DNA of 64,000 nucleotides, taken from assembly GCA_964510105.1 (NCBI GenBank), contig CAZEAI010000001.1, positions 74,693 through 138,692 on the forward strand. Reading direction: 5' to 3'. This DNA comes from an uncultured bacterium (GTDB lineage: Bacteria > Latescibacterota > MWCZ01). The translations under genes were made by a program, and so were the position numbers. Position 1 is the first letter of the stretch. Each line of letters opens with the position of its first letter. Shown in pieces: positions 9,062 to 30,287 of the stretch. A model generated the notes under the pieces. That model saw only the letters and a list, made by a program, of their open reading frames with translations. It did not search any database and was not told where the DNA came from.

Positions 9062-9071
9062 GTATCCTCAA

Positions 9072-11200: not shown

Positions 11201-11202
11201 GA

Positions 11203-12144: not shown

Positions 12145-12270
12145 CGAGCGACTCGCGATCCGAGCGTAGGGTTCAGCATCGTTGACTTGTAGCAGATAGT
12201 ATACGCGCTCGCCATCGTACTCGAAAACGGGCGCTGGCGGAGCCCGCTGCCGCGCGGTGCATCGATGCCA

Positions 12271-13439: not shown

Positions 13440-14294
13440 CTAGCGTTGCACGGCCCGACGCATAGCGTCCACCGGCGCGGCCTGCCCGGTCCACAACTCG
13501 AACGATCTCGCGCCCTGGTATACGAGCATGTCGAGGCCGTTATACGCCCGCCCACCGGCGCGTTCTACCTGCTGCATGAGCGGCGTGACCGGGGGGCTGT
13601 AGTTCGAATCGACACACACCAGATCGCCGTGTGCGCAGCGCCACTCGTCCGGCAGAGGCGAGAGGCCGGCAAGCTCGCCACGCCCCAAGCTCGTCGCATT
13701 CACGAGCAGTCCGGCCGTAGCGACGGCATCCGCCGCACACTGCCGCTCAAGCGGGGCGCCGACCACTTCGACTGCTCCGGTGAATTCCTCGGCAAGCACG
13801 CGGGCTTTGTCCTGCGTCCGGTTCAGGATCGTCACCCGTCGCACGCCGTCCATCGTGGTAAGCGCGTAGACGATGCCCCGAGCGGCACCCCCCGCGCCCA
13901 GCACCACGACGTGCTCCGGCGCCCGGGATACACCCGCGCCATCCGTGATCGCCCGGATGATCCCGACCACGTCCGTATTGTCGCCAAATAGCGTCCCGTC
14001 GCGGTTCACCACCGTGTTGACCGCGCCGACGGCGCGAGCGGCATCGCTCAGCTTGTCCACCGCCGCCATCACGGCCTGCTTGTGCGGCACCGTGACGTTC
14101 ATGCCGCGCCAGTTCAGCGCGCGCACGGACTCAACCGCCGCGGGAACAGCGTCGGGCTGGACGTGACAGGCAACGTACACCCAGTTGAGCCCCAGCTCCG
14201 AGAATGCCGCGTTGTGCATCGGCGGCGAGAGCGAGTGCTCCACCGGATCGCCGATCACGGCGACGATCTGCGTGCGTCCGTCGATATCGTGCAT
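13440..14294 (-). CDS. aroE: Shikimate dehydrogenase
   Basis: VIGDPVEHSLSPPMHNAAF N-terminal shikimate-binding motif and the GAGGAARG Rossmann motif. Confidence 0.85.
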   Translation of the reverse strand: MHDIDGRTQIVAVIGDPVEHSLSPPMHNAAFSELGLNWVYVACHVQPDAVPAAVESVRALNWRGMNVTVPHKQAVMAAVDKLSDAARAVGAVNTVVNRDGTLFGDNTDVVGIIRAITDGAGVSRAPEHVVVLGAGGAARGIVYALTTMDGVRRVTILNRTQDKARVLAEEFTGAVEVVGAPLERQCAADAVATAGLLVNATSLGRGELAGLSPLPDEWRCAHGDLVCVDSNYSPPVTPLMQQVERAGGRAYNGLDMLVYQGARSFELWTGQAAPVDAMRRAVQR

Positions 14295-14347
14295 GGAAAC
14301 CCCCTCGGTGGCGCGGCTGATCGTCCTGAGCGAATCAGCAGATCACT

Positions 14348-15076
14348 TCATATCATGAGCAGAACGCCGAGAATCAGCACAAGAGCCGACACGAGGCGCC
14401 CGAAAAGCTTCTGGTCGACCCGGTTGAAAACGGCGATTCCGATGCTCGATCCGACGAGTATCGCCGGCAAGAGCGCGCCGGCGGACTTCAGGAGTGGTCC
14501 GTTAAGCGACCCCTCCGCGACGAGCGCGATTGTTTTGATCGCCGTTGCCGCGAAAAAGCACGTCAGGAGCGTCGCTTTGAACACCTGTGGCGACCATGGC
14601 TGACGCGCGGCGAACGCGATGAGCGGCGGTCCGCCGATGTTCGTCGCGCCACCGACAATGCCGCCGAGCAAGCCTGCCGCGTATCCCCACGCCGTACTGA
14701 GAGCCTTACGCTCCCACCGTTCGCCAAGCAGCCGCGTGATGCCCACATAGAGCAGAAGCATGCCGACCAGCAATCGTATCAGCGCCGTCGACCCTCCGAG
14801 CAGCAGAGCCAGCCCCAACGGCAGGCCCGCCACCATGCCGACGACCATCGGCCCGACGTTCCGGAGGCGTACCGAGTGGCGGACGCTCCAGAGGACGATC
14901 ACGATGTTCGACGTAGACAGCGGCGCCATCATGATGGAGGCCACCTTCGCATCGATGAGAAGCACACTCAGCCCCATCGAGACCATGCCGAAGGCGAACC
15001 CGACCGCTCCCTGCACAAACGCGGCGAGCAGGATTATCAGTTCGAGCATGAGTAACGTCTGGAGGTCGAACGCCAC
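14348..15076 (-). CDS. TauE/SafE (TSUP) family membrane exporter
   Basis: About 240 aa, highly hydrophobic, with the two-repeat architecture and glycine-rich helices typical of TSUP. Confidence 0.7.
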   Translation of the reverse strand: MAFDLQTLLMLELIILLAAFVQGAVGFAFGMVSMGLSVLLIDAKVASIMMAPLSTSNIVIVLWSVRHSVRLRNVGPMVVGMVAGLPLGLALLLGGSTALIRLLVGMLLLYVGITRLLGERWERKALSTAWGYAAGLLGGIVGGATNIGGPPLIAFAARQPWSPQVFKATLLTCFFAATAIKTIALVAEGSLNGPLLKSAGALLPAILVGSSIGIAVFNRVDQKLFGRLVSALVLILGVLLMI

Positions 15077-15077
15077 G

Positions 15078-15488
15078 TCAGCGGCCCGCGCCGAGTGTCA
15101 GAATCACCGCCGGATCGACGTCGTCCGCACGCACGGAGTACGCTTCTCCCTCGCCCAGCACGATCACGTCGAACGCGCTGACCGGGTGCTCTATGTCATC
15201 GATGGTGATGCGCGCTCGCCCCTGCGCGATCACGAGCACCAGCTCGCCTCGTTCGACGGTCTCCCGTTCGCAGGCGTCGTCGCGACCGTAGTATCGCACG
15301 TCGGCGCGATCCATGCATCGCAGCCCTTCCGCCGCTGGGAGGCCGGGCGAGAGAAACGTCCGACGGTCCTCGCCGGGGCGTTGATCGTGAAGAGAGAACA
15401 GAAGCATCGGATTTCGCTCCGGTGGGCTGATCGGTTCAACATCGCAGGGACGGTTCGCGGACCGCGCGGAGGTGTAAGGTATCGCCAA
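15078..15488 (-). CDS. Cupin-domain protein (start uncertain)
   Basis: Small beta-barrel-type sequence (GELVLVIAQGRARITIDD, VIVLGEGEAYSV); 2-nt gap to the TauE gene. Confidence 0.45.
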   Translation of the reverse strand: MAIPYTSARSANRPCDVEPISPPERNPMLLFSLHDQRPGEDRRTFLSPGLPAAEGLRCMDRADVRYYGRDDACERETVERGELVLVIAQGRARITIDDIEHPVSAFDVIVLGEGEAYSVRADDVDPAVILTLGAGR

Positions 15489-16444: not shown

Positions 16445-18646
16445 CTACGATAGCGCATGCTCCGTCCGCTGGATGATCTCGTCCTGCAGCGGACGCGAGA
16501 GGCGCGTGAAGTAGTCCGAGTACCCCGCGACCCGGACGATGAGATTCGCGTGCTCCTCCGGGTGGTCCTGCGCCTCCCGCAGGAGATCGGACGACACGAC
16601 GTTCACCTGCACCTCGAAGCCGCCGAGGTGCAGATATGTCTCCAGCAGGTCGATCGACTTCTCGCGATCGTCCGAAGACTCGAACATCGACGGCGTGAAT
16701 TTCACATTCGTCACGATCCCGCCGACGAATTTCGTGTGATCTATCTTCGCCGACGAACGCAGCATCGCAGTGACGCCCGAGGTATCATGCCCCTGCACCG
16801 GTCCCACGGAGTCCGCCAGCGCCTCGCCGGCATGACGCCCATCGGGAGTCGCACCGGTCCGCTCACCGAACGCGGAGTGCACAATCCAGCACAGATATCC
16901 GGGCTGATAGGGTCCACCGCGCGGATTTCTATACTGCCGGGTCTCGCCATACCAGAATTCCGAGAACTCGTTCCAGAGGTTATCGGGTTCCTCGTCGTCG
17001 TTGCCGTACCGCGGCGGCTTTGAGCCCATGAGGTGCCGCAGAGCTTCCTCGCCCTCCCAGTCGCGCCGCATGATATCGGCAAGATCGGGCAGCGACACTG
17101 CCTTCTCCTCGTACACCGCCCAGCGGATCGCGAGTAGTCCGTCCACCACGTTTGACAGCCCCACCAGTTCCGGCATCGTGGGGTTGTGGCGCGCGCCGCC
17201 GCACGTGAAGTCCGTGGCGCGCTCGATGCAGTCGCTCACGAATGTGGAGAGCAGTGGATACCGGACCGTCTCCATCCAGCCGCGGTCCCACGCCGCAGTG
17301 ATCTCGTGGTTGTACTTCATGGCCTGGGCGAGGTCGGTGCGGAACTCGTCGACGATCTCCTCCCACGCGGGCTGAGCGCCGCTCTCCTTCGCGCGCTGCC
17401 CGACTCGTTGGACGACTCGTTCAAGGGCCTTGCCCGCGTTCACATAGCCCGACGCCACCCACGGGTTGGAGCAGCCGATCGCGCTGATCTCCACGCACGA
17501 TCCGGCCATGTAGTTGACCGCCTCCTCGCGAGTCACGCCGTCGCGCATGAGCCCGGGAACGATCGCCTCGTCGTTGAATACCGCCGGGAACCCGATTCCC
17601 GTACCCATGAGCCTGACGGATTCGCGCATCACGTCGCGGTCGAGCTTCGGATGCCAGCTCACACACAGCGCCGGATGAAGCATCTGCAAGTCGTGCGATA
17701 CCTCAAGGCAGAGCAGCGACACCTCGTTCGACGCGTCCTCACCCTCGGGCGTCTGGCCACCGACGAACAGCGTCTGCGGGACGGTGTACGGGTCGAACTC
17801 GCTGTATTTCAGGAAGAGGCACGCGAGTGTCTCGTAGGCGCTCTCTTCGTTCATGCGCCCCTGCTCGATATCGCGACGGTAGTACGGCCCGAGGTACTGA
17901 TCGACGCGCCCTGGACAGAAACACCCGTGACCGTGACCGTTCAGCTCGATAACGACCCAGATATGCACGAACCAGAGCAGCTGCGCGGCCTCGCGATATG
18001 TCCGCGGCGGCTCCGACGCAACGTGGCCACACACTTCGTGGATGCGGATCAGCTCGGCCTGCCGCGGGCCGTCGGTCTCCATGGCCATGAGCCACGCGGC
18101 CTCGGAATACCGACGGGCGTACCGCATCGCTCCCGTCAGCGCGTAGGCCATGCCGCGCAACGCGTCACGCTCATCACCGGTTGTGTCCTTGAGCCGTGCC
18201 GCGACATCGTCGCGCAAGCCCGCGAGCCCTTTCTTCAGTATCGTCGGGTAGTCGGGCGTGAGGTGGCCGGTCATCGCCCCTCCCGCACCGTGTCGACACT
18301 CCGCCACCGACTCATGGGCGTCCGGCGAAATGAGCGGCTCGACAACCGCGCTGCGCGCTTCGCCGAGCGTATCCGGGTCCAGGGAGTCAAACTCCGCCTG
18401 TTCCTGTTCGCTCGGCTCCCGCCGCAGCCACCGCCCGACGATGAGTTCGTCCGGGCCGATCTCAACGGGCAGCCGCTCCAACGTGTCGTGAAGCGTCTTG
18501 CCGTAGCGAGCACCTATTCCTTCATCGGCATGGGCGCGGATGCCGCGAGCCCACAACAACTCGCGGTCGACGAAGTATCCAGACTGCTCGAACAGCCACG
18601 CTCGTATGCGTCCGATGCGGTCCGTGCGAAGAATCGGCTGAATCAT
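16445..18646 (-). CDS. Glycyl radical enzyme 1 (PFL-like fold; eliminase/dehydratase type, substrate unknown)
   Basis: C-terminal glycine-radical motif RVAGYSDYF; Cys loop AGSCVEIS (Cys-x-Glu as in glycerol dehydratase/CutC/HypD-type GREs, not the Cys-Cys of PFL); about 730 aa. Start trimmed to MIQPILRTDRIGRIRAW at 18646, because the track ORF (to 18766) has a 40-aa junk extension. Confidence 0.85.
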   Translation of the reverse strand: MIQPILRTDRIGRIRAWLFEQSGYFVDRELLWARGIRAHADEGIGARYGKTLHDTLERLPVEIGPDELIVGRWLRREPSEQEQAEFDSLDPDTLGEARSAVVEPLISPDAHESVAECRHGAGGAMTGHLTPDYPTILKKGLAGLRDDVAARLKDTTGDERDALRGMAYALTGAMRYARRYSEAAWLMAMETDGPRQAELIRIHEVCGHVASEPPRTYREAAQLLWFVHIWVVIELNGHGHGCFCPGRVDQYLGPYYRRDIEQGRMNEESAYETLACLFLKYSEFDPYTVPQTLFVGGQTPEGEDASNEVSLLCLEVSHDLQMLHPALCVSWHPKLDRDVMRESVRLMGTGIGFPAVFNDEAIVPGLMRDGVTREEAVNYMAGSCVEISAIGCSNPWVASGYVNAGKALERVVQRVGQRAKESGAQPAWEEIVDEFRTDLAQAMKYNHEITAAWDRGWMETVRYPLLSTFVSDCIERATDFTCGGARHNPTMPELVGLSNVVDGLLAIRWAVYEEKAVSLPDLADIMRRDWEGEEALRHLMGSKPPRYGNDDEEPDNLWNEFSEFWYGETRQYRNPRGGPYQPGYLCWIVHSAFGERTGATPDGRHAGEALADSVGPVQGHDTSGVTAMLRSSAKIDHTKFVGGIVTNVKFTPSMFESSDDREKSIDLLETYLHLGGFEVQVNVVSSDLLREAQDHPEEHANLIVRVAGYSDYFTRLSRPLQDEIIQRTEHALS

Positions 18647-18732
18647 GTTATGTTGCCTTTCGTGCGATTTGGATGGCGTGTGTATGCTGAACAACCTCGC
18701 CCACGGCTCAAGCCGCGGGCTACATGCTGCGA

Positions 18733-18841
18733 AGTCGGCTGAAGCCGACTGCGTGCCGCCAACCATACCCGTGCCCAGCCACCTTCAGGTGGCTTGTCGT
18801 TCGTAGCCCGACACCAAACGTAGCCCCCGGCTTCAGCCGGA
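18733..18841. promoter_or_regulatory. Array of three GC-rich hairpins with an identical TTCA/TGAA tetraloop in the GRE-2/GRE-1 spacer
   Basis: agtcggcTGAAgccgact (18733-18750), agccaccTTCAggtggct (18777-18794), ccggcTTCAgccgg (18827-18840). Each has a 5-7 bp GC-rich stem and a 4-nt loop; they fill the 85-bp gap between the GRE-2 stop and the GRE-1 start region. Confidence 0.4.
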
Positions 18842-18851
18842 GGGCGACGAA

Positions 18852-21233
18852 CTACAGTTCCGCGTGCTTCGTCCGAGCGATGATGTGATCCTGCATGGTC
18901 TTGTCCAGCAGACAGAAACGCATGCTGAAGCCTGATACGCGCACGGCTATATGCCCGAACCGCTCGGGATCGGCCTGCGCCTCGCGGAGCGTCTCCGAAT
19001 CGATCACGTTGAACTGCATCTGCCCGACGCCCTCATCCACCGCGGCCTGCATGGCGTCGAGCACCTTGTCGAGACCGCTGCCCGCGAGCAGCTTCGGCGA
19101 CAGCTCGATGATCGCGCTCGACGACCCCGCCGCGTGCTCGTGCGGAAGTTCCATGAGCGAGCGGAGCATCGCCGTCAGCCCCTCCTGATCCATGCCCTGC
19201 GTCGCCGACACGCTGTACGCCAGCGGATCGTGCGCGAACCGGCCGTCGGGAGTCGCATTCGTCGCTCGACCGTGATCGAGGTGCCAGACGAAGCTGAAAA
19301 GGTGCGCGTGAAACGACCCACCGTGCGGGGTCGTGTACGTGGCCATATGGTCGCAGTAGTGTTGCGCGGCGCGAGCGACCCAGCGATCGACTTCCGCCAC
19401 GCCGTTGCCGTACTTCGGTATTCGGTTGACGATGAACTGCCGCTCGGCCTCGCCGCCTTCCCAGTTCGTGCGCAGAAGGTCGAGCAGCGTGTCGGCCGAC
19501 ATTGTCCCGTCGCCGAATACGAGCTGCTCTACGGCGTGAATCGAGTCGCCCACGTTCGGCAGCCCGATAGCGCACGTCGAGTGGTAGTGGTATCGCGCGC
19601 CGCCAGCGGTCATGTCCGTGCCGCGACCGATGCAGTCTTCGGTTAGAATCGACGTGTACGGCAATGGGTTCCGCAGGTAATCCTCGGCGTCTCCGCGGTT
19701 CGAAAGCTCCACGGCATGCCGGGCGAAATGTTCGACCTGCGCGGCGTACGCAGCCCATAGCTCCTCGACGTCGCTCATGTTGCACAGTTCGCCGGTTCGC
19801 GGGCCGACCTGCTCGTTGGTCTTGAGATCGCGACCGTCGTTGAGGGCGAGTTCGAGACACTTCGCCGTATTCATCATGTGGCTGACGGCGTGCGGATTCG
19901 TCCTGCCGGGAATCGTCACTTCGACGCAGCCGATGATGGCGTAGTCACGGGCTTCCTCTACGGGAATGCCCTTTTCGACAAGCGCCGGTACGATGGCCTC
20001 GTCGTTGAAGAAGAACGGCACACCACCTCCGCGCCGGATGATCCGGAACGCGGCCTCCAGCAGCCTCTTCGGCGTCCCCCGATGCACGCGTACCGACATG
20101 CAGCGGATCAGGTTCACCCGCCACACAGCCTCGAGGAAGAGATACGTCACGTCGTTCGTTGCGTCCGATCCATCGGACAGCACGCCGCCGATCGTCGCCT
20201 GCTGGACGTCGTAGCTCTTGTACAGCGCGAGGTGGAGCGCCTCGAGGATCTCCAGCGCATCGTCCGGGGTGGTGCGTCCGGACGCGATGTCCGCCTCGTA
20301 GCAGGGATTGAGATACTGGTCGTACCGCCCGAACGAGTTCGCGTTGATCCCGTCTTCCCACCCCATCACGAGATGTCCGAACCAGAGCGCCTGCGCCGCT
20401 TCGTGGAACGTTCGCGCCGGCTTCGCGGGCACTCGCTCACATATCTCCGCGAGCCGTCGGTACTCTGTCGCCTGCGCGGCGTCGGGCTCCGCATCGGCCA
20501 TCCCGTTCAGATGCGCGGCGAAACGCCTTCCGAGCCCGCACGCCGCATCGGCGATCGCACGGGCGGATTCCAGCCAGGGGCGCTTCCGCTGATCCTCGGG
20601 CCGCCATGGCTCCAGCGCGGCGAGTTCGGCGTCGACGCGGTCGCGGATGCCTTCGAATCCTTCGCGTATGATCGTCTCGTACGACGGTACGGTATGCCCG
20701 CCGCTTCCGCCCCAGCCGAAGAACATGCCTGCGTCGATGTCCTTCTGGATGTAGTCGGGGAGCGGAGTCGCGAGCGGCTCCATGCGGCGCGGATGCTCCG
20801 CCCACCAGTCGATTGCATCGTGTACGCGTCGTTTCCAGTCGTCGGGGATGCTCAGGCCGTCCACGCGTTCGTGGGTTTGCGCGGCATGGTCGGGATTACT
20901 GAGCGGCTCACACTCGAGCCAGCCGATGCCGCGGAAGGACTCGTGCTGCTGGTAGCCGACGATGATCTCGCCGGGGCGAATCCGAATCGGATAGCCGCGG
21001 ATGACGTTCGCGAGCGCCAGGGCCTGCCGGACAATCCATGGCCGGTCTTCCGTCTCGCGCATGCTCTCGGCTACGAGCCAGGCCCGCGGGGCGTAGTGGT
21101 CTCCGTAGTCGGCGTCATCCGTCGCGTACTCGCGGAGGCGCTCCACGCGAGGCGAGAGATCGACGCCGTGCGCGCCCTGCACGACTTCGGAGTCGTCTGT
21201 TCGTGAGGTATCGGCGGCTAACACGTCGGACAT
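18852..21233 (-). CDS. Glycyl radical enzyme 2 (PFL-like fold; eliminase/dehydratase type, substrate unknown)
   Basis: C-terminal glycine-radical motif RVSGFSMRF; Cys loop IGCVEVTIPG; 793 aa; clearly paralogous to, but divergent from, GRE-1. Confidence 0.85.
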   Translation of the reverse strand: MSDVLAADTSRTDDSEVVQGAHGVDLSPRVERLREYATDDADYGDHYAPRAWLVAESMRETEDRPWIVRQALALANVIRGYPIRIRPGEIIVGYQQHESFRGIGWLECEPLSNPDHAAQTHERVDGLSIPDDWKRRVHDAIDWWAEHPRRMEPLATPLPDYIQKDIDAGMFFGWGGSGGHTVPSYETIIREGFEGIRDRVDAELAALEPWRPEDQRKRPWLESARAIADAACGLGRRFAAHLNGMADAEPDAAQATEYRRLAEICERVPAKPARTFHEAAQALWFGHLVMGWEDGINANSFGRYDQYLNPCYEADIASGRTTPDDALEILEALHLALYKSYDVQQATIGGVLSDGSDATNDVTYLFLEAVWRVNLIRCMSVRVHRGTPKRLLEAAFRIIRRGGGVPFFFNDEAIVPALVEKGIPVEEARDYAIIGCVEVTIPGRTNPHAVSHMMNTAKCLELALNDGRDLKTNEQVGPRTGELCNMSDVEELWAAYAAQVEHFARHAVELSNRGDAEDYLRNPLPYTSILTEDCIGRGTDMTAGGARYHYHSTCAIGLPNVGDSIHAVEQLVFGDGTMSADTLLDLLRTNWEGGEAERQFIVNRIPKYGNGVAEVDRWVARAAQHYCDHMATYTTPHGGSFHAHLFSFVWHLDHGRATNATPDGRFAHDPLAYSVSATQGMDQEGLTAMLRSLMELPHEHAAGSSSAIIELSPKLLAGSGLDKVLDAMQAAVDEGVGQMQFNVIDSETLREAQADPERFGHIAVRVSGFSMRFCLLDKTMQDHIIARTKHAEL

Positions 21234-21328
21234 GGGGTCTCCCCGCGAGCGGTTTCGGACCGGCGGTCTGCATGAATGTACCGATCAGCGGTGGAAATGT
21301 ACGGCGACGCGCCTGGTACCGAAAGGAT

Positions 21329-21366
21329 GTAGGGGCCGGCGGGGCGAACACGGGGCTCGCCCCTAC
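21329..21366 (-). terminator. Putative terminator hairpin downstream of the PhyH-family gene
   Basis: GTAGGGGC...GCCCCTAC 8-bp stem enclosing a GC-rich inner hairpin; followed, in minus-strand sense, by AUCCUUUCGG. Confidence 0.35.
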
Positions 21367-21385
21367 GACATCGACCATCGCCGAT

Positions 21386-22165
21386 TCAGTACGCCTCTAT
21401 CGTCTGCCAGTCGAGCTTCGGCCGGACACCCTTTACCATGTAGCCGGGGCGCGTCAGGCCTTGCCCGCCTTCCTGCCGGTTGCGCGGGTCGCGGAACCCG
21501 AGCCGCACGATGCGTCTCCAACGGCCACTGTGATTCACCGCTGATCCGTGAATCGTCCAGATGCTGAACAGCACCACGTCGCCCGCCTTGGCCGGTACGC
21601 TCACCGCGTCCTCCAGCCGGTACTGGTCCGTCGGCAGGTGCGGCGCGGTGTCCTCTCCCGTGATGTGCTCCAGCTTGCCGAGCTTGTGGCTTCCCGCGAG
21701 GAACTTGATGCAGCCCGCCAGCTCATCCGCGTCGTCGAGGTGCACCAGCGCGTCGACGTAGCGCCCGTCCCTGTGCGGGTAGAACGGCAGGTCCTGGTGC
21801 ATCGGAAACGGCGCGCCCGCGTCGGGCGACTTCGCGTGGAGCGTCGAGTGGTGCAGCTCGACCTCGTCCGAGCTAAGCACCGCCCCGACGGCGTCCGCGA
21901 GCCCCGGCGTGCTGATGGCGCGATTCCACGCGGCGGAGTAGTGCTGGAGTTCGTGGATCGCCACAAGCTGCGCCTTCTCCTCCTCGTCGGCGTCGAGGTA
22001 TTCCTCGCGCCACGGCCCGCGCCATGCGGCGTTCCAGTCGGCGAACGTCTCCATGACGTAGGTCAATTCGTCGCTCATGCGAGCGAGTTCGTCGGGCGCG
22101 TAGACCTGCTTGAGATGGAGGTAGCCGTTCTCGGCGTAGAAATCGACCTGTTCCTGCGAGATCAT
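21386..22165 (-). CDS. PhyH-family Fe(II)/2-oxoglutarate-dependent dioxygenase
   Basis: HxD...H facial triad candidates (HQDLPFYPH ... TIHGS) and a phytanoyl-CoA-dioxygenase-like N-terminus (ENGYLHLKQV); about 260 aa. Confidence 0.7.
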   Translation of the reverse strand: MISQEQVDFYAENGYLHLKQVYAPDELARMSDELTYVMETFADWNAAWRGPWREEYLDADEEEKAQLVAIHELQHYSAAWNRAISTPGLADAVGAVLSSDEVELHHSTLHAKSPDAGAPFPMHQDLPFYPHRDGRYVDALVHLDDADELAGCIKFLAGSHKLGKLEHITGEDTAPHLPTDQYRLEDAVSVPAKAGDVVLFSIWTIHGSAVNHSGRWRRIVRLGFRDPRNRQEGGQGLTRPGYMVKGVRPKLDWQTIEAY

Positions 22166-22336
22166 CGTGTATCCCTTGAGCGCATGGGGTAGGAGCGTAG
22201 CGTATCGGGATACAAAGATGGAAAGAATGAGCGAGCAGTCAATAAACGAGTGGCGATGCGGCGTTCGTGCTGTCTCGGGAGCGAGGTCGGGGATGTGGTG
22301 GCACTGTCACCGTGTTTGCGCCCTCTCTGGCCGAAT

Positions 22337-23017
22337 TCAGTCGTTCAGCAGCCGCACGGCGTCAAACAGCCCTCGCTCGGATGATAGAATGGACCGGCCT
22401 GCGCCTGCAAAGTCACCGGTGGCATCAGTGAATTGCGCTCTCTCAAGCGCCACACCGGGCTTGCCGATGAGGCTCGTTATCGCACCGGACGCGTCGGTGA
22501 ATGCGATCTGCGCGCCATAGGAGGCTTGGCACAACACCGACATTCTCACTCGCTGAAGCTCGTCGAGGAATTGTAGGGAACTTGCGGAAGTTGTGGGCGG
22601 GTCTCCCGCAGAAAGACCCATACGAGGTCCAGCCTCGTCAGCTAGAATCAGTGTATGCGGAAGGAGGATTGCGCGATATCCGGCGTTGCCAGCTCGCAAC
22701 GTAAGAGACCCCTCGCTGATCCTAGTGTGCCACGAGGTGGGCTGTCCTACGGTGATGCCGCTCCCGGCAATGCTAACAAGCGTCCGGCCATCGCCGCCTA
22801 CAACAACGAGGCTATCACCAAGCCTGATCGTCCTCGCAGTCAGACTGACCACTTCAAGATCGTCTGGAAGGCCCGATGTGCTGTTCATCAGACCGCACGA
22901 CACGATGGCCGCGAGCGCCAACGCGAGACCCATCGTACCCGCGACCAATCGCCTGTTGGCGCTCTCTAGGCGCCGCAGACGTGAATCCATCTCTTCACCG
23001 TGCGGTGAGTGTGACAT
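22337..23017 (-). CDS. Hypothetical membrane-anchored protein (short coiled-coil N-terminus, one TM, about 170-aa extracytoplasmic domain)
   Basis: ATG at 23017 preceded by GGGGGA (RBS-like, minus sense); TM segment LVAGTMGLALALAAIVSCGL; no recognisable motifs. Confidence 0.4.
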   Translation of the reverse strand: MSHSPHGEEMDSRLRRLESANRRLVAGTMGLALALAAIVSCGLMNSTSGLPDDLEVVSLTARTIRLGDSLVVVGGDGRTLVSIAGSGITVGQPTSWHTRISEGSLTLRAGNAGYRAILLPHTLILADEAGPRMGLSAGDPPTTSASSLQFLDELQRVRMSVLCQASYGAQIAFTDASGAITSLIGKPGVALERAQFTDATGDFAGAGRSILSSERGLFDAVRLLND

Positions 23018-23114
23018 GGAGTTATCCCCCTTGTTCTGATCGGCAGCTAGGAAGTATCCGTATGTCTCCGACGGAACAGTAGTAGGCCGCTTCACTGAGC
23101 GCAACAGCCCGCCC

Positions 23115-24074
23115 CTACTCCCGCGTCACTTCCACGCCGTGGTGGGCGAACACGTCGGCGACCGCGGATATGTCCTCCTCCGACGGCGCGTCCGTGCCGG
23201 TGAGGGTGTAGTCCCTGCCGAACTGCTCGTACTTGCTTTCGGCGAGGCGGTGGTAGGGCATGATGTTGAGCTGCTCAAGGCGCGGATTGCCCCACAGCTC
23301 GCCGACGAACGTCGCCATGCGCTCGACGTCTTCCGGGTCGTCCGTGCAACCGGGGATGAGTGGGAAGCGCAGCCACACCGGCGGACCGTCGTCACCGGAG
23401 AGGATTTCCCGCAGATTCGCGATGACCAGCTCGTTGGAGACGCCGGTCAGGCGTCGGTGCAAGTCGTCGTCCAGGGCCTTCAGGTCGAAGAGCACGAGGT
23501 CCGCCATCGGGACGATGCTTTGCACGGTCTCCGCTGGAGCGTATCCGCACGTATCGACGGCGCAGTGGAATCCGCCGTCGCGCGAAAGCTGCAACACCGC
23601 TCGCGTGAATTCGGGCTGGAGCATCGGCTCGCCGCCGGAGAGCGTGATGCCACCGCCGGAACGCTCGTAGAACATCTTGTCCCGCCCGGCAAGCTCGACG
23701 GCCTCCCCGGCCGTTGTCTCGCGCCCGGCGATCTCAAGCGCTCCTGTGGGACATCCCTCGATACAGACGCCGCACCGCACGCACGCGTCGCGGTCGTACT
23801 CGTGCGTATCCCCTTCGATCCGGTGCCCGTCGTGTTCGCACGCCTCGACACACTGCGAGCAGAACAGGCACTTCGCCGGGAGATACCGGATGTCGCGCCG
23901 GGCCTCCATCGACTCCGGATTGTGACACCAGAGACACCGCAGCGGACAGCCCTTGAGGAAGATCGTCGTACGGATGCCGGGTCCGTCGTGTATCGAGAAG
24001 CTCTGGATATCGAAGATGCGCCCCGTCACGGATTCCAGGTCGGCGACGGTGCTCGCGTGGGCGGGTGTGGTCAT
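23115..24074 (-). CDS. Glycyl-radical-enzyme activating enzyme (radical SAM, with two auxiliary ferredoxin-like [4Fe-4S] motifs)
   Basis: Radical-SAM CPLRCLWCHNPES (CxxxCxxC) plus CLFCSQCVEAC and CVRCGVCIEGC clusters, and the glycine-rich SAM motif GGEPML. This three-cluster architecture is typical of activases for non-PFL GREs. Start trimmed to MTTPAHA at 24074. Confidence 0.85.
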   Translation of the reverse strand: MTTPAHASTVADLESVTGRIFDIQSFSIHDGPGIRTTIFLKGCPLRCLWCHNPESMEARRDIRYLPAKCLFCSQCVEACEHDGHRIEGDTHEYDRDACVRCGVCIEGCPTGALEIAGRETTAGEAVELAGRDKMFYERSGGGITLSGGEPMLQPEFTRAVLQLSRDGGFHCAVDTCGYAPAETVQSIVPMADLVLFDLKALDDDLHRRLTGVSNELVIANLREILSGDDGPPVWLRFPLIPGCTDDPEDVERMATFVGELWGNPRLEQLNIMPYHRLAESKYEQFGRDYTLTGTDAPSEEDISAVADVFAHHGVEVTRE

Positions 24075-24307
24075 CGGGGTGCCTGCGCTCCGGCGTAACG
24101 GGTATCGAGGGCTACCGACCGACGAAGATACGATGGGCCTGCCGGTCGGAGGAACCCTTGGTACGTTCACAGGCCGAAGCTAGTGTACCGGAGCCGGCAT
24201 CACGCGTCGCGACCGCCGTCCCTCCGAACGAGGTGGCGAGTCGCATGCGCAGCACCACCAGCCACGCAGCGATCGTCGTTCTGAGTGAAGCGAAGAATCT
24301 CTCGCGC

Positions 24308-24319
24308 CGCGATATCGCG
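24308..24319. promoter_or_regulatory. Perfect 12-bp palindrome CGCGATATCGCG about 45 bp upstream of the URO-D-like operon, in the divergent promoter region shared with the activase gene
   Basis: Read directly from the sequence; candidate operator for a dimeric regulator. Confidence 0.3.
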
Positions 24320-24361
24320 ATTCCGAACGCAGCGTAGAATCTCCCACCGTCTGGAGACTAG

Positions 24362-25453
24362 ATGACCGACCGCGAACGCATGACCGCCATCATGCGCCAC
24401 GAGCCCGTCGACCGCGCGATCTGGCAGCCGAGGCTTGAGCACTGGTACAACACGAACAAGCGCCAAGACACGCTGCCCGAGTCGTACCGAGAACTGTCGC
24501 TGCTCGACGTGTACGACGATCTTGGCTGCTCAATCCGCGCGTACGATTTCTACAACCAGGCCATCGAGCGCCTGCCCATGGAGGGTGTGTCGCTGGATGT
24601 CGTCGAGGAGTCGGCGCGGCACAGCGTCGGGCGGCTGAGCACGCCCGTCGGCACGCTGGAATGCGTGGCGGGCAAGACGGCGGAATCGTCGCTCCTGCGA
24701 GAGTTCTTCATCAAGAGTATCGACGACATACGCGTCTACGAATACCTCCTTGAGAAGCAGGAATTCCACTTCAATCTCGATACATTCCGCGAGATGGACG
24801 AGCTCGTCGGCGACCGTGGCGCACCGGTGATGTTCAACCTGCGCACGCCGCTCATGCGGATGTTCATCGAGACGATGGGATTCGAGAACACCATTGTGGC
24901 CATGCACGAGCACCCGGTGGAGATGGAGCGCTACGTCCGGCTCATGGAGGAGACGGACCAGCGCTACTACGACATGGCGAAAGGGTGCCCGATCGACGCG
25001 CTCAACTTCGGCGACAACGTCGACTCGAACATGCTACCGCCCAGTCTGATGCGAGAGTGGACCCTCCCGTACTACCAGCGCCGCACGGCGGAAATCAGAG
25101 ACGCCGGCATGGTCTCGTATCCGCATTGGGATGGCGCGCTCGCCGGCCTGCTGCCGTTCATCTCGGAGGCGGGGTTCGACGGCTACGAGGCGCTCACACC
25201 CGAGCCCATGGGCGACGTGACAGTCGAGGCCATCGCCGACGCCATGGGCCACGACTACTTCATGATGGACGGCATCCCGGCGTCGGTATTTTGCGAGCCG
25301 TTCACAATGCAGGAGGTCGAGGATTTCGCCATACGCGTGCTCGACCTCTTCGCGCCAGGCCTGATTCTGGGCGTGTCGGACGAGCTTCCGCCCGACGCGG
25401 ACATCGAGCGAGTACGTCTCGTTGCGGAAATCGTGCGAGACTACAGACCGTAA
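24362..25453 (+). CDS. Uroporphyrinogen-decarboxylase (URO-D)-like family protein 1
   Basis: N-terminal ERMTAIMRHEPVDRA and the central GFENTIVAMHEHPVEMERYV region resemble the URO-D-like/MtaA-like TIM-barrel family; about 360 aa. Confidence 0.55.
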   Translation: MTDRERMTAIMRHEPVDRAIWQPRLEHWYNTNKRQDTLPESYRELSLLDVYDDLGCSIRAYDFYNQAIERLPMEGVSLDVVEESARHSVGRLSTPVGTLECVAGKTAESSLLREFFIKSIDDIRVYEYLLEKQEFHFNLDTFREMDELVGDRGAPVMFNLRTPLMRMFIETMGFENTIVAMHEHPVEMERYVRLMEETDQRYYDMAKGCPIDALNFGDNVDSNMLPPSLMREWTLPYYQRRTAEIRDAGMVSYPHWDGALAGLLPFISEAGFDGYEALTPEPMGDVTVEAIADAMGHDYFMMDGIPASVFCEPFTMQEVEDFAIRVLDLFAPGLILGVSDELPPDADIERVRLVAEIVRDYRP

Positions 25454-25520
25454 CCACCCGACACTCGGGCAGCCTCGCAGCACGCGGTGTCCAAACGCAA
25501 CGACACAGGGGAACGATACA

Positions 25521-26810
25521 ATGGCATCATCAGCCGACTCACCGGTGATCACCGAACGCGACCGCACAATCCTGCGCGACGTGGCGTCGCGGTACATGGA
25601 GATCGCCCACAGCGCGAAAAATGAGGAACGGCGACGCCTCTGGACCGATCACAACGATCTGCGCGAGTCGCGTCCGCTGGTGCTCATCGAGTCGTTTCCG
25701 GCGACCGATACGATGATCACGCCCGATGTACTGGAATGCGAGCAGGAGTCGTCGCGCGGACTCGAACGGTCGCTACGCGTGAAGATCGCGCACTTCGAGC
25801 ACGTCGACGACGACGACGTTGTCGAGCCATACATCACCGCCAACTGGAGCGTGAGTGGCACGGGATACGGCGTCGCCTCGAAGCGCGAGTTCGCACCTGA
25901 CCGAGAGACCACCGACCACATCAGAGGCAGCTACGTGTGGGAAGCGCCGATCCAGAACATAGAACGCGACTTCCACAAGCTCACGCCTCGTACCTTCACC
26001 GTCGACCGCGATGCCACGCATGACCGGGTATCCCACCTGGAGGACGTATTCGGCGATGCGCTTCCGGTGCGGATTCGTGGTGGATTCTGGTGGACAACGG
26101 GCATGACCATCGTCGCCATCGATCTCATCGGCCTCGAGAACCTCATGCTCTACATGTATGACGATCCCGACGGACTCCACCGCATCATGGGATTCCTGCG
26201 CGACGATCAGGTCGCCTACTCGAAGTGGCTTGAGAGCGAGGGTCTGCTCACGCTGAACAACGAGGGCGACTACATCGGCTCCGGCAGCCGCGGCTACACG
26301 ACCGATCTCCCGCAGTCGGACTATACGCCGGACTCACCGCCGCGCCTGCGTGACCTGTGGGTCCTCTCCGAGTCGCAGGAGACCGTCGGTGTCGGACCGG
26401 AGCAGTTCCGCGAGTTCGTCCTGCCGTATCAGAAGGATGTCGTCGGTCTGTACGGGCTGACCTACTACGGCTGCTGCGAGCCCGTCCACAGCCGGTGGAA
26501 GGAACTCACCGAGTTCTCGAATCTGCGCAGCGTATCTATCTCCCCGTGGGCGGACGAATCGTTCATGGGCGAGGCCCTCGGGCGAGACTACGTCTACAGC
26601 CGGAAGCCGAATCCGACGCTCATCAGCACGACCGAATGGGACGAAGAGGCCATCCGGGCCGACATCCGCGCGACGCTCAACGCCACGAAAGGCTGCAACG
26701 TCGAGATCGTTATGAAGGACGTTCACACGCTCTCCGGCGAGCCATGGCGCGCCGCGCGCTGGGTCGAGATCTCGCGCGAGATCATCCGCGAGTTCGGCTT
26801 CGACGCGTAG
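25521..26810 (+). CDS. URO-D-like family protein 2 (divergent paralog of the upstream gene)
   Basis: ATG at 25521 with a GGGGA RBS; shares GLENLMLYMYDDPDGLHRIM with the GFENTIVAMHEHPVEMERYV region of the upstream gene; C-terminal ISPWAD motif; 429 aa. Confidence 0.45.
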   Translation: MASSADSPVITERDRTILRDVASRYMEIAHSAKNEERRRLWTDHNDLRESRPLVLIESFPATDTMITPDVLECEQESSRGLERSLRVKIAHFEHVDDDDVVEPYITANWSVSGTGYGVASKREFAPDRETTDHIRGSYVWEAPIQNIERDFHKLTPRTFTVDRDATHDRVSHLEDVFGDALPVRIRGGFWWTTGMTIVAIDLIGLENLMLYMYDDPDGLHRIMGFLRDDQVAYSKWLESEGLLTLNNEGDYIGSGSRGYTTDLPQSDYTPDSPPRLRDLWVLSESQETVGVGPEQFREFVLPYQKDVVGLYGLTYYGCCEPVHSRWKELTEFSNLRSVSISPWADESFMGEALGRDYVYSRKPNPTLISTTEWDEEAIRADIRATLNATKGCNVEIVMKDVHTLSGEPWRAARWVEISREIIREFGFDA

Positions 26811-26823
26811 CCGGGAGGCTCCC

Positions 26824-29205
26824 GTGGCGAATCGAGTAGAGATCAACGAGGGAGACACCGGCGGCAGCACGATTGCCGTCGCCGGACTTGCCACCGCGCT
26901 GGGCCCGCTCCATCGGCGGGTCACCATCGACGGCGGCGAGCACTGCCTCTCGACGATTACCCGGGATGCCGAAGACACTCCGCGCGGCGAGCGGATCGAA
27001 TACCGCGGTCCGGGCTCTCCCGTGCGACTCGTGGAGTTTCGCTCGCCGCTGGACGACGGCCTCCGCAGCGAATTCCTGCTGGTGAACGATTCACCGAAAC
27101 GCCTCGTGCTGAACTCCGTCGAGCTGCTCGGATTGGACGCGGTCGGCTGCGTCGGATTCGACTCGGGGGCATCCCGCCTTCGCGCGCTCGAACAGGGGGC
27201 GTACTGGGGCCACGTCGTCGACTTCGCACCCGAATCCGGCGAGCGCGACGGCGCATCCGACCTCGTATGGGTCCTCGCCGACGAAGCAAGCGGCGCATCG
27301 ATGCTTGTAGGATTCGAGACGGCGCACCGCTGGAAGGGCACGATCCAGACGCGCGTCGTTGGTGAGGAACTCGCGGCGTTATCCGTTGGCTTCGACGGCG
27401 GCGACACAGCCATCGAGCCGCGAGCGACGGTGCAACTCGAGGACTTGCTGATACTCGCCGGCGACGACCCGCTGGACCTGCTGGATCGGTACGGCGAGAC
27501 CACCCGCGCGCGCCACCAGCCTGATATCCTCGCCGAGTCGCCCGTCACGTGGTGCTCATGGTACCCGCACCGCCTCGGCGTCACTCACGAACGGGTGATG
27601 CGAAACGCGCGCGTCGCCGCCGAACGCCTCAAGCCGCTCGGACTCTCGACGATGCTGGTCGACCTGGGCTGGCAGGAGGGGTGGCTGCCGAGCATCTTCG
27701 ACGAGAAGGACGAGTTCCCCGGCGGCCTGCGGGCACTTGCGGACGACCTCGCCGAACTCGGACTCGACCTGGGAGTCTGGTCCGCGCCGACCTCCATCAG
27801 CGCGCACGACCCGGTCGCACAGGAGCGCCCCGAATGGCTCGTCCCCGGCGAGGACGGGTCGCCACGAGAGGCGGGGACATGGTTCTGGGCGCCGCACGGC
27901 CCCATTCACATCCTCGACCTGACGCATCCCGGCGCACGCGGGTGGCTACGCGAGCGCATCGCACTGCTGGCGGAGCGAGGCTGCCGGTATTTCAAAGGCG
28001 ACTTCGTCGGGAACATCCAATCGGGCGACGCGAAGCGACGGCACGACGACTCCATCGTCGGAGGCGGCGGGCTGGAAACGGGGCACATCGCCGCGCGAAT
28101 CTTCATGGACGCCCTCCGCGAACACCGGCCGGACGCGCTCGTGCTGTCGTGCGGCGGCCCGGAGCTGCCCGGCCCCAGCGCCTCGAACCTGCTCTACTCG
28201 TGCGACGACACCGGCAACACCGGCTACGTCGGCTGGGAGCTTCTGAGGCGAACGCAGCTCTCCATCGCGACGCACCTGTTCAAGCACCGTCGCTGGGGCG
28301 TCATTCAGCCGTCATGCATGAGCACCGGCCTGCCCGGCACGATCGACGAAGCGCGCGTCAGAGCCACGACGGCGTTCATGTCGGGCGGCCAGATCGACAT
28401 CGGCGACGATCTGACGAAACTGCCCGAGGACCGCTGGCGTATCCTCACCGCGACGTTGCCTCCGTACGGCAAAGCAGCCCGACCCATCGATCTGTTCACG
28501 CCGATCCAGCGCGCGCGCGGCGGCTACAGCACGGCCACGGTCGGGACGGGGATCGATCTGGCGGGTGTGCCTCCGGCGCCGCCGGCATCGGTGTGGGCGC
28601 TGCCCATCGACGCGGGGTGGGATTCCTGGACACTCGTCGCCGTGTTCAGCTATGATCTTCCGGACATCGCGGGCGACCGTGGTGAGGCCCAACTCGATAC
28701 GTTCTTCCTGCCCGTCGAGCGCCTGGGACTTCCGCCGCGAGACGATCTCTGGGCATACGAGTTCTGGTCCGGCCAGTTCTCCGGAAATCTTCCCGCCGAT
28801 CCACCACCGATGCCGGACTACCAGCATCCCGGCGACATGCAGTCGCTTGTTGCGCGACCGGACTCCGGCACGCTCGCGGTGAGCTTCTTCGGACCGGGCG
28901 TGAAGCTGCTCGCCGTGCGACGCGCTCCGGATCATCCCTGGGTCGCCGGAACGGACTTCCACCAGTCGTGCGGCTTCGAACTCGCGGATGTGCGATGGGA
29001 GCCGGGTACAGGCACACTCTCCGGCAGTATCGACCGTCCCGCCGGCACATGTGGAGCTATCGCGCTGGCGGGGTTCGGAGCATCGAACCCGCACGCCACT
29101 GTCAACGGCAGCCCGGCGTCTGCCCGGACGGGATCGGGCGGTTCACTGGTCGTACCGGTCTCCGTCGAATCCGAAGGAACGCTCTGGGAGGTCCGGTTCG
29201 ACTGA
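26824..29205 (+). CDS. Glycoside hydrolase, clan GH-D (GH36-like alpha-galactosidase family candidate)
   Basis: TIM-barrel entry motif TWCSWY, MLVDLGWQ (DDGW-like), and KxD nucleophile-like RYFKGDF; N-terminal beta-sandwich of about 230 aa; 793 aa. Confidence 0.5.
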   Translation: MANRVEINEGDTGGSTIAVAGLATALGPLHRRVTIDGGEHCLSTITRDAEDTPRGERIEYRGPGSPVRLVEFRSPLDDGLRSEFLLVNDSPKRLVLNSVELLGLDAVGCVGFDSGASRLRALEQGAYWGHVVDFAPESGERDGASDLVWVLADEASGASMLVGFETAHRWKGTIQTRVVGEELAALSVGFDGGDTAIEPRATVQLEDLLILAGDDPLDLLDRYGETTRARHQPDILAESPVTWCSWYPHRLGVTHERVMRNARVAAERLKPLGLSTMLVDLGWQEGWLPSIFDEKDEFPGGLRALADDLAELGLDLGVWSAPTSISAHDPVAQERPEWLVPGEDGSPREAGTWFWAPHGPIHILDLTHPGARGWLRERIALLAERGCRYFKGDFVGNIQSGDAKRRHDDSIVGGGGLETGHIAARIFMDALREHRPDALVLSCGGPELPGPSASNLLYSCDDTGNTGYVGWELLRRTQLSIATHLFKHRRWGVIQPSCMSTGLPGTIDEARVRATTAFMSGGQIDIGDDLTKLPEDRWRILTATLPPYGKAARPIDLFTPIQRARGGYSTATVGTGIDLAGVPPAPPASVWALPIDAGWDSWTLVAVFSYDLPDIAGDRGEAQLDTFFLPVERLGLPPRDDLWAYEFWSGQFSGNLPADPPPMPDYQHPGDMQSLVARPDSGTLAVSFFGPGVKLLAVRRAPDHPWVAGTDFHQSCGFELADVRWEPGTGTLSGSIDRPAGTCGAIALAGFGASNPHATVNGSPASARTGSGGSLVVPVSVESEGTLWEVRFD

Positions 29206-29213: not shown

Positions 29214-30287
29214 TTACAGTCCGATAGCGCGGGCCGGTCCCATCTCCAGCGCGTGCCGGAAGACCGCGTCCACCACGGTGAGCGTAGCGAGGGCCTCGTC
29301 AGGCGTCGGGCTCTCCGGTATGCCTTCGGCGACGCTGCGCAGGTAATGCGTGATCTCGCGCCTGAACGCCCACTCGGGCGGCGATTCGACCACCTCTCGA
29401 CGTCCTTCCCGCCCACGGTAGATCTCAATCGTTCCCGGAACGTTTCTGTGAAGTGCGGGGGGCGACGAGAACCGCAGCCATCCGCCCTCGTAGTGCAGTT
29501 CGATCCATTCCTCCCATACGCCCGGCTGCGCGGGCCCGTCCACCAGCACCGCCCGGGCCCCGGCCCAATCGAGCATGACCACCGAGGCCGGATCGGGCTC
29601 CGGATGCGACGTGATTACGCCGGTTGGCGGACCGATCCAGAATGAGATGAGATCGAGCGCGTGGGACGTGTAGTTGTTGAACCATGCCCATGGCCCGTGC
29701 AGATGACCCGGTAGCCACTCCGGCCACTTGTAGGCTGACGCTTCCTCCGGCTGGCTGTCGCCTGCGGACATGATCCCGTCCGGACGGCATTGCCAATCGC
29801 CACCGAGCGACTGGTAGCGAATCAGCCGGAGCCGCCCCATCTCGCCGCTTTCCGACCATCCCCGCACGATGTCGCGCACCTGCTCGGCCGCCGGGTCGTG
29901 ACGCCGCTGGAACGCGAGCTGCAACCGGACACCGGAACGTTTCGCCGTGTCGATGATCGCTCGCCCGTCCTCAAGGGTCGTCGCCAGAGGCTTCTCCATG
30001 AAGACGTGCTTGCCGGCGGTCATCGCGGCGATCGACAGCTCGCGATGGACCGGATCGGGCACGCTGAGCACCAGCGCATCGACGGATTCGCCGGAGAGCA
30101 TGTCCTCAAGCGATGAGTACACGGCGGGGATGTGGTAGCGACTCGCCACGAGCCCGGCTGTCTCAACGCGAGCGTCCGCCAGGGCAACGACTCGGCAGCG
30201 CTCATCCTCCGCAAGCAGGTTTGGGATGTGCGCACGCTGGGACATAAGCCCCGCTCCCACGACGCCAATTCTCACGAGATCTTCCAT
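29214..30287 (-). CDS. Gfo/Idh/MocA-family NAD(P)-dependent oxidoreductase
   Basis: IGVVGAGLMSQRAHIPNL Rossmann start and EKPLA motif. Confidence 0.8.
   Translation of the reverse strand: MEDLVRIGVVGAGLMSQRAHIPNLLAEDERCRVVALADARVETAGLVASRYHIPAVYSSLEDMLSGESVDALVLSVPDPVHRELSIAAMTAGKHVFMEKPLATTLEDGRAIIDTAKRSGVRLQLAFQRRHDPAAEQVRDIVRGWSESGEMGRLRLIRYQSLGGDWQCRPDGIMSAGDSQPEEASAYKWPEWLPGHLHGPWAWFNNYTSHALDLISFWIGPPTGVITSHPEPDPASVVMLDWAGARAVLVDGPAQPGVWEEWIELHYEGGWLRFSSPPALHRNVPGTIEIYRGREGRREVVESPPEWAFRREITHYLRSVAEGIPESPTPDEALATLTVVDAVFRHALEMGPARAIGL

Follow-up and report, generated by a model that had tools for sequence, protein, structure and literature searches.

What do two proteins of the uroporphyrinogen decarboxylase superfamily (URO-D or UroD) do beside a glycosidase? 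The question is raised by a 64-kb stretch of contig CAZEAI010000001.1 from an uncultured bacterium, called the window below, in which three plus-strand genes, g1, g2 and g3, follow one another closely (Table 1). A sequence-only reading of the window had described them as two divergent URO-D-like paralogs and a glycosidase resembling glycoside hydrolase family 36 (GH36), and had suggested that the paralogs may be decarboxylases or O-demethylating enzymes acting on modified sugars. We found that g1-g3 is a real, conserved three-gene operon. What is new here is a pair of uncharacterised UroD-superfamily subfamilies, one of them lacking a family model, encoded together with a divergent GH36 enzyme in an operon confined to one lineage; we found no literature on URO-D proteins in carbohydrate loci. 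Our tentative answer, which we hold at somewhat less than an even chance, is that g1 and g2 form a methyl- or alkyl-transfer pair whose substrate derives from a glycoside and whose corrinoid carrier is encoded outside the operon.

All three genes look coding, since their third-position GC is 0.81–0.85, and each is preceded by its own ribosome-binding site. For g1 this is GGAG at 24353–24356, 5 nt upstream of the ATG, and for g3 it is GGGAGG, 5 nt upstream of the GTG. The longest g2 reading frame opens at a TTG (25422); the ATG at 25521 has AGGGGA 8 nt upstream, and the 429-residue product that begins there exactly matches a database protein. The three co-directional genes and the 13-bp gap between g2 and g3 are as first described, while the gap between g1 and g2 is 67 bp rather than 68. 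A promoter and terminator scan found no terminator-like site above chance within the unit. The intergenic region upstream of g1, which separates it from a divergent glycyl radical enzyme (GRE) operon, presumably holds the promoters of both units; in it the scan found no sigma-70 consensus and nothing above chance, and no Rfam family or riboswitch was found upstream of g1. By eye there is no signal peptide at the N-terminus of g1, g2 or g3, and so all three products are treated as cytoplasmic.

The window was compared with homolog-bearing contigs and loci, which are labelled L001, L002 and so on, and with the contig of protein P0122. The order g1-g2, with or without g3, is kept in at least eight related contigs (L001/L002, L004, L005, L006, L086, L088, L105 and P0122), of which the named ones are metagenome-assembled genomes (MAGs) of Candidatus Latescibacterota. 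Their g1 and g2 proteins are 60–72% identical to those of the window, and g3, where present, is 52–58% identical.

The g1 protein passes the Pfam URO-D model (PF01208) modestly, scoring 34.6 bits over residues 120–361 against a gathering threshold of 23.9; a sequence search detected no solved structure for it. Homologs are numerous: a word-indexed search returned 523, and species-representative genomes hold at least 591 g1-type loci, these genomes all being MAGs and spread over many phyla including archaea. The AlphaFold2 model (confidence score pLDDT 95.5) is a TIM barrel. Its top Foldseek match in the PDB is the methyltransferase MtaA of M. mazei (4ay7; E 1.6e-12, TM-score 0.61), with URODs next, and the fold matches share 12–16% identity with it. 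Invariant residues among 44 homologs of 40–90% identity include H255-W-D257-G258, E276, D303 and D340-E341; they sit just after predicted beta-strands of the model, and no cysteine of the family is conserved above 73%. In a profile-to-sequence alignment the HWDG motif falls exactly on HICG of 4ay7, which we take to be the His/Cys part of the MtaA zinc site. The spacing of H255, D257, E276 and D340 (+2, +21, +85) also mirrors that of H641, C643, E665 and C726 in E. coli MetE (+2, +24, +85), presumably the zinc ligands of that enzyme. From these registers we infer that g1 probably keeps a metal site in which carboxylates have taken the place of the thiolate ligands.

The g2 protein is recognised by neither model: it scores 14.1 bits with Pfam URO-D, below the threshold of 23.9, and 18.1 bits with the NCBIfam MtaA/CmuA model (TIGR01463), whose cut-off is 235. 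A sequence search found no PDB relative, and g2 is counted as URO-D-like only because of its confident AlphaFold2 fold (pLDDT 90), for which the best Foldseek matches in the PDB are human UROD and MtaA (TM-score 0.5–0.6, 12% identity). More than 3600 homologs at 50–72% identity come from Poribacteria, Phycisphaerae, Hydrogenedentes and others, all annotated as hypothetical and without a Pfam family. An exhaustive search with a hidden Markov model (HMM) gave 3136 clusters at 50% identity with E≤1e-3, 1879 of them at E≤1e-10. In a deep alignment (28–54% identity) E82, D98, G317-C318-C319, K362 and D400 are invariant, and D97, W280, Q286, E298, E320, S339, S341, W343 and E395 nearly so; in the C-terminal half of the barrel most conserved residues sit where predicted strands end or immediately beyond. 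Judged by spacing, as for g1, C318 and E320 may fill the positions of the MtaA His and Cys, and D400 and H402 that of its distal Cys. The vicinal G-C-C also recalls the GGCC zinc motif of MetH and BHMT, which is present in a MetH-like protein at locus L014, described below; the g2 motif presumably lies on another strand than in those two enzymes.

How are g1 and g2 related to each other? Both have the UroD (beta/alpha)8 fold, as solved URODs match the two models with Foldseek E values of 1e-7 to 1e-11 and TM-scores of 0.5–0.65. When their profiles were aligned with hhalign the register was sensible, yet the probability was 14% and E was 0.002. An alignment this weak makes the word paralogs too strong: g1 and g2 belong to separate families within a single fold superfamily, and are not recent paralogs. 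The earlier description as URO-D-like thus stands, for g1 through Pfam and for g2 through predicted fold alone. Both look like working enzymes, since polar residues are conserved after the predicted barrel strands in each, so the fear that they might be pseudo-enzymes was not borne out. The conserved zinc-binding His-x-Cys...Cys site that had been looked for is absent from g1, which has H255-W-D257 in place of its first part, and g2 does not have it in canonical form, with no H-x-C and instead G-C318-C319-E320.

The family name might suggest that g1 or g2 is simply the HemE of the heme pathway, and the name is all that speaks for it. No HemE model in NCBIfam matched either protein at E≤1, the Pfam URO-D score, marginal for g1, falls below threshold for g2, and hhalign against E. 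coli HemE gave E values of 0.27 (g1) and 0.013 (g2), both at a probability under 4% and not significant. Likewise there are no heme genes near g1-g3 among the scanned genes of the window, and the carbohydrate and GRE context is conserved across relatives. The scores, the missing HemE models and the hhalign result together rule out a HemE identity, to which we assign a negligible chance. A less specific proposal is that g1, g2 or both are cofactor-free, UROD-like decarboxylases acting on carboxylated sugars or aromatic acetates. In fold they match UROD as well as they match MtaA, and hhalign gave short local matches on UROD motifs (GxPWT and MYxDP in g2, the C-terminal LGHG region in g1). Against this stand the insignificant similarity to HemE and the absence of uronate-pathway genes next to g1-g3; moreover UROD is metal-free, while g1 and g2 conserve residues of metal-ligand type, which UROD lacks, at the MtaA and MetE positions. 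We regard such decarboxylases as very improbable, and the decarboxylase half of the sequence-only proposal has gained nothing from our results.

Outside HemE the UroD superfamily consists mainly of methyl and alkyl transferases (PMC10418091). The methylcobamide:coenzyme M methyltransferases MtaA, MtbA and MtsA (TIGR01463, 4ay7) have the same UroD-type barrel at 12–13% identity, MtaA being the best structural match of g1 with a shared motif register, and a true MtaA-like gene adjoins some g1 homologs in corrinoid clusters. Neither protein is a canonical MtaA, however, an identity ruled out by score, ligands and context: the zinc Cys of MtaA is an Asp in g1, whose family has no conserved Cys, g2 has G-C-C-E where MtaA has H-x-C, no corrinoid protein is encoded nearby and the host is no methanogen. 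MetE is likewise among the fold matches of both models and resembles g1 in the spacing of H/D/E/D to its own H/C/E/C, though the ligand chemistry is altered in g1, and hhalign against the MetE C-terminal barrel gave nothing significant.

Another comparison is with methyltransferase I of O-demethylase and dehalogenase systems. These enzymes are homodimeric TIM barrels with extensions that act on the substrate side, and zinc may or may not be present in those of the UroD superfamily (PMC13222342). Tandem methyltransferase I paralogs are carried by the mto operon (PMC8630106). Known enzymes of this kind come from acetogens and methanogens and use methoxylated aromatics or halomethanes, whereas the context here is one of carbohydrate and GRE genes; their operons normally include a corrinoid protein, methyltransferase II and activase, of which the corrinoid protein is missing here. 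A published study accepted either synteny or mere occurrence somewhere else in the genome when it scored the genes for these three components (PMC13222342). No characterised methyltransferase I appeared among the PDB fold matches of the g1 and g2 models.

Indirect support for a methyltransferase role of g1 comes from the genes beside its homologs in other genomes. RACo is the ATP-dependent reductive activator of corrinoid proteins, and its genes are rare in genomes. Homologs 39–42% identical to g1, with the same invariants, are encoded directly beside RACo in three lineages: L014/L018 (WOR-3/Stahlbacteria), L035/L044, and L038 (Hydrogenedentota). Given the rarity of RACo, we judge this adjacency, without attaching a statistic to it, hard to put down to chance. 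At L038 the order is MetH-like gene, g1 homolog, RACo. At L014 (positions 3592–14364 of JAYENM010000141.1, a MAG of candidate division WOR-3) there is a compact and complete corrinoid methyl-transfer cluster. It runs from a sugar O-acetylesterase through a URO-D gene (HMDG), the g1 ortholog, a MetH-like gene, a corrinoid protein, an MtaA-like gene (HICG) and a ROK kinase gene to RACo. The g1 ortholog there is 42% identical and keeps all invariants, the MetH-like gene is a stand-alone homocysteine domain of MetH type (E 1.5e-59) and the corrinoid protein (E 4e-62) has the DxHxxG motif. This arrangement suggests that a methyl group carried by a carbohydrate is salvaged into methionine. The host of the cluster is neither an acetogen nor a methanogen. 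The RACo-linked members are scattered over a neighbor-joining tree, and some fall in the half that holds g1 of the window. By analogy with these relatives a methyltransferase role for g1 is plausible, and to that extent the O-demethylase idea of the sequence-only reading has been strengthened; no such context accompanies the g2 loci.

Several results weigh against methyl transfer by g1 and g2. Gene scanning, a B12-motif regular expression and tblastn found no corrinoid protein, RACo or MetH-like gene in the window, in agreement with what the sequence-only reading had said of corrinoid proteins, and none is present in any Latescibacterota-like locus. RACo or a corrinoid protein occurs at none of 82 g2 loci, and a corrinoid protein at only one (L014) of about 72 independent g1 loci; corrinoid genes are likewise missing from the GRE-bearing clusters of the window, L116 and L084. 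The g1 protein fails the MtaA/CmuA model (31.6 bits; cut-off 235), the similarity of its profile to 4ay7 is marginal (E 0.25), and its comparison and that of g2 with the methyltransferase I enzymes OdmB, VdmB, MtvB, MtoB and CdmB draws on the shared superfamily and on the published descriptions of those enzymes. Apart from the general carbohydrate context there is no signal of methylated sugars. Finally, relatives of g3 were found at none of about 72 other g1 loci and none of 79 other g2 loci, only in the Latescibacterota-like clade. The GH36 link is lineage-specific, and the wider co-occurrence with GH36 genes that might have been expected did not appear.

We examined the neighbors of the two families beyond that clade. 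What most often adjoins a g1-type gene is a further URO-D protein (19 of 128 neighbors, at 76 loci), and the same is true of g2-type genes (8 of 149), which are next most often beside GFO/IDH/MocA (6) and aldo-keto reductase genes (4). These URO-D partners belong to H-x-C and H-x-D classes; that of a g1-type gene is often an H-x-C type just upstream, and that of a g2-type gene is often an H-x-D type. Such pairing speaks for g1 and g2 as a methyl- or alkyl-transfer pair. In one recurrent arrangement an HSCG-type URO-D gene directly precedes a g1-type HxDG gene (L035, L044, L056, L062, L066 and L072), in Armatimonadota, Fervidibacter and Anaerolineae; RACo follows this pair in L035 and L044, where no corrinoid protein was seen. 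H-x-D types also lie near g2-type genes (L010, L020, L084, L116, L161 and L165), and g1 and g2 themselves are co-located again in two of these, the Armatimonadota loci L010 and L020. Other neighbors are mostly of carbohydrate type, with FGGY kinases, ABC sugar transporters, ROK, GH29, GH38 and sulfatases besides the two oxidoreductase families. GFO/IDH/MocA, the most frequent neighbor of g2 other than URO-D, was considered as a specific partner and discounted, as the family is very abundant. Both families are concentrated in uncultured carbohydrate degraders of the Latescibacterota, Armatimonadota, Hydrogenedentota, Poribacteria, Planctomycetota and Anaerolineae.

The carbohydrate-type neighbors would fit a rival proposal, that g1 and g2 are corrinoid-independent, metal-dependent TIM barrels that convert sugars as isomerases, epimerases, dehydratases or lyases, the RACo-linked relatives being a functionally different branch. 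Their substrate would be a monosaccharide from g3 or an oxidised intermediate from the adjacent GFO/IDH/MocA enzyme. Apart from the overwhelmingly carbohydrate neighborhood, this proposal agrees with the lack of a corrinoid protein in the window and at about 98% of family loci, with g2 loci never having RACo or a corrinoid protein, and with the His/Asp/Glu/Asp set of g1, which may resemble the hard-metal sites of sugar isomerases and lyases. It fits less well that the RACo-linked homologs share every g1 invariant and are interspersed in the tree, that an invariant vicinal Cys pair such as that of g2 is atypical of sugar isomerases, and that the association with GFO/IDH/MocA is not clearly above background. 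We know of no UroD-superfamily member with isomerase, epimerase, dehydratase or lyase chemistry on sugars. We consider sugar conversion of this kind somewhat unlikely, and keep methyl or alkyl transfer as the preferred reading.

The glycosidase assignment of g3 was confirmed. It just passes the Pfam Melibiase model (28.7 bits; threshold 27), and its best solved relative is GalA of Thermotoga maritima (TmGalA; 1zy9, E 2e-21 over 352 residues). D393 and D462 of g3 align to D339 and D399 of chain 1zy9_A, which correspond to native D327 and D387 because of a 12-residue tag. We take D327 to be the nucleophile and D387 the acid/base of TmGalA, roles reportedly established by Comfort et al. in 2007. 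D280, K391, D393 and D462 are invariant among 37 g3 homologs, and L281 is conserved in at least 90%. With a recognised domain, a K391-x-D393 motif as predicted nucleophile and D462 as predicted acid/base, g3 has the catalytic marks of GH36, so far as sequence can tell. The D220-D221 pair of TmGalA, presumably the sugar-binding DD motif of GH27 and GH36 structures, aligns to D280-L281, so that the galactose-recognition motif is not found in g3. With Leu for the second Asp, its specificity is probably not plain alpha-galactoside, and its -1 subsite is therefore predicted to differ from that of classical alpha-galactosidases. The protein is also about 240 residues longer than TmGalA and belongs to a clade of its own, whose members are 42–58% identical across phyla; several MAGs annotate them as alpha-galactosidase. 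The family occurs on its own as well; in Paenibacillus cymbidii, for instance, a member stands next to an ABC sugar transporter. In L001 the g3 ortholog is followed directly by a split DDE_5 transposase (5524–6318), a hint of mobility or rearrangement at the operon end.

On the methyl- or alkyl-transfer reading, the unit would be a cytoplasmic catabolic operon. The g3 protein, as an active retaining GH36-type alpha-glycosidase, would cleave or trim an alpha-glycoside that carries or yields the substrate, which would be a methylated sugar or glycoside. The g1 and g2 proteins, as different and catalytically intact members of the UroD/MtaA/MetE fold, would be paired in alkyl, most likely methyl, transfer. 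In this pair g1 would be the substrate-side component, like methyltransferase I of O-demethylase systems, with a putative His/Asp/Glu/Asp metal site instead of His/Cys/Cys; we propose that such a carboxylate-type site would suit the polarising of an ether or hydroxyl oxygen. The Cys-type partner would be g2, through its invariant vicinal Cys-Cys, and a corrinoid carrier and its ATP-dependent activase would be supplied in trans. That the proteins bind metal, depend on a corrinoid and transfer methyl groups is conjectural here, as are the division of labor between g1 and g2 and the identity of the substrate, including the earlier ideas that the substrate may be a methylated or uronic sugar or that its product may feed the neighboring GREs.

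Those GREs raise the question whether g1, perhaps with g2, serves their pathway rather than the glycosidase. A GRE module, consisting of two GRE genes with an activase, lies divergent from g1 (Table 1). The divergent arrangement of activase and g1 is kept in L004, L005, L006, L086, L088, L003, L170 and the P0122 contig, and the module adjoins g1 in seven related contigs, among them L003 and L170, both without g2 and g3. L105 presents the opposite case: cupin and TauE genes abut g1-g2-g3-GFO directly and there is no GRE. As L003 and L170 keep g1 with the GREs while L105 keeps g1-g2-g3 without them, g1 is the constant element. Outside the clade, L116 (positions 135–11275; metagenome contig Ga0233431_1000233) carries, all in one direction, a URO-D fragment, a URO-D gene (HSCG), a GRE, an activase, three URO-D-like genes, two of them with H-x-D, and a g2-type gene, and is an independent case of clustered GRE and UroD-superfamily genes. 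In L084 and L147 a GRE lies no more than 6 kb away from g2.

Alkyl or thiol transfer by g1 could then make or consume the GRE substrate, on the analogy of MtaA and of epoxyalkane:coenzyme M transferase acting on sulfonated thiols, and the nearby TauE-family exporter would fit; TauE and cupin genes flank the module in all relatives. The persistence of g1 beside activase-GRE1-GRE2 in L003 and L170 and the g2-type loci just named favor this proposal, while L105, the lack of a GRE at any of about 72 other g1 loci and the likeness of the window's GREs to diol dehydratases rather than sulfolyases oppose it. In addition, synteny among related genomes can last without a functional link. At g2 loci there are three GREs in about 0.85 Mb, not clearly above expectation; with a count so near background, we treat the GRE link outside the clade as suggestive only. 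All in all we find a role in the GRE pathway quite doubtful.

The GREs are of interest in themselves. The best solved relatives of both are B12-independent glycerol and diol dehydratases and HypD, with isethionate sulfite-lyase weaker. GRE1 and GRE2 stand in tandem with one shared activase and are only about 30–33% identical to each other; neither reaches any equivalog cut-off. An O2-dependent Fe/2-oxoglutarate dioxygenase of the PhyH family is encoded inside this otherwise anaerobic operon, in the window and in the P0122 contig, and is not found in L003, L170, L004 or L006. Between it and the activase is a stretch of about 950 bp with no coding signature (third-position GC about 0.63 in every long reading frame, against at least 0.8 in real genes); the syntenic P0122 contig has only about 130 bp at this site, and the stretch may be what is left of a decayed gene or of an insertion.

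Downstream of g3, and convergent with it, is a GFO/IDH/MocA gene whose position is kept in the P0122 contig and in L105, and which may belong to the module. The family has five copies in the window and is so abundant that adjacency to any window gene tells little. The window is unusually rich in sugar oxidoreductase-type genes generally (Table 1). On the far side of the GRE module, the set of genes from HpcH-type aldolase to the small cupin-like reading frame stays together by the cluster, with or without the GRE module, in L003, L105, L170 and the P0122 contig; the shikimate dehydrogenase among them passes AroE equivalog cut-offs and is probably housekeeping.

Two further pathways were considered for this neighborhood and set aside. 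A sulfoquinovose or sulfonate pathway was suggested by the TauE exporter, the GREs, the HpcH aldolase and a clan GH-D enzyme, but the GREs match glycerol/diol dehydratases and HypD better than isethionate sulfite-lyase, and L105 has no GREs. An anhydrofructose/anhydroglucitol route (clan GH-D enzyme, GFO reductase, PflD/YbiW-like GREs) was an idea for which no score discriminated.

Table 1. Genes and other features of the window mentioned in the text.
Feature	Position	Strand	Remarks
HpcH-type aldolase, shikimate dehydrogenase, TauE-family exporter, small cupin-like ORF (open reading frame)	12271–15488	-	
GRE module	16445–24170	-	divergent from g1; Pfam/NCBIfam matches
GRE2 glycyl radical enzyme	16445–18766	-	Pfam/NCBIfam
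GRE1 glycyl radical enzyme	18852–21233	-	Pfam/NCBIfam
PhyH-family dioxygenase	21386–22165	-	Pfam/NCBIfam
Stretch between PhyH and activase genes	22166–23114		no coding signature
Radical-SAM activase	23115–24170	-	Pfam/NCBIfam
Divergent intergenic region	24171–24361	.	191 bp, between the GRE-activase operon (minus) and g1
g1	24362–25453	+	ATG start, 363 aa, URO-D Pfam match
g2	25521–26810	+	ATG start, 429 aa, UroD/MtaA-like fold by model
g3	26824–29205	+	GTG start, 793 aa, GH36-like (clan GH-D)
GFO/IDH/MocA oxidoreductase	29214–30287	-	convergent, 8 bp from g3 end; Pfam/NCBIfam
Sugar oxidoreductase-type genes (at least four GFO/IDH/MocA, one xylose-isomerase-like TIM barrel, one aldo-keto reductase)	29214–30287, 42097–43152, 52096–53079, 62399–63523, 61506–62579, 51105–52085		
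GH2	58932–61394		

A broader proposal can be made for the two families as a whole. The g1 (H-x-D) and g2 (G-C-C) types may together represent an unrecognised and widespread means of removing O-methyl or alkyl groups from sugars and glycosides anaerobically, with corrinoid acting in trans or bound directly and no dedicated corrinoid protein. In that case g2 would be the founding member of a new enzyme family within the UroD superfamily, and in some lineages the demethylated product would pass to GREs of diol-dehydratase type. As a single package we think this rather unlikely.

Polysaccharides of plants, algae and microbes commonly contain methylated sugars, and we know of no anaerobic route by which the methyl groups of these sugars are removed. 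Within the literature searched, the one route found for demethylating carbohydrates is an oxygen-dependent cytochrome P450 (PMC6292453). If g1 and g2 have some other chemistry, they would add to the reactions known for the UroD fold. If they are methyl or alkyl transferases acting on carbohydrates, they would provide a testable route for anaerobic sugar demethylation, would explain the recurrent tandem URO-D pairs, and would give a function to thousands of genes now called hypothetical or misnamed as uroporphyrinogen decarboxylase family.

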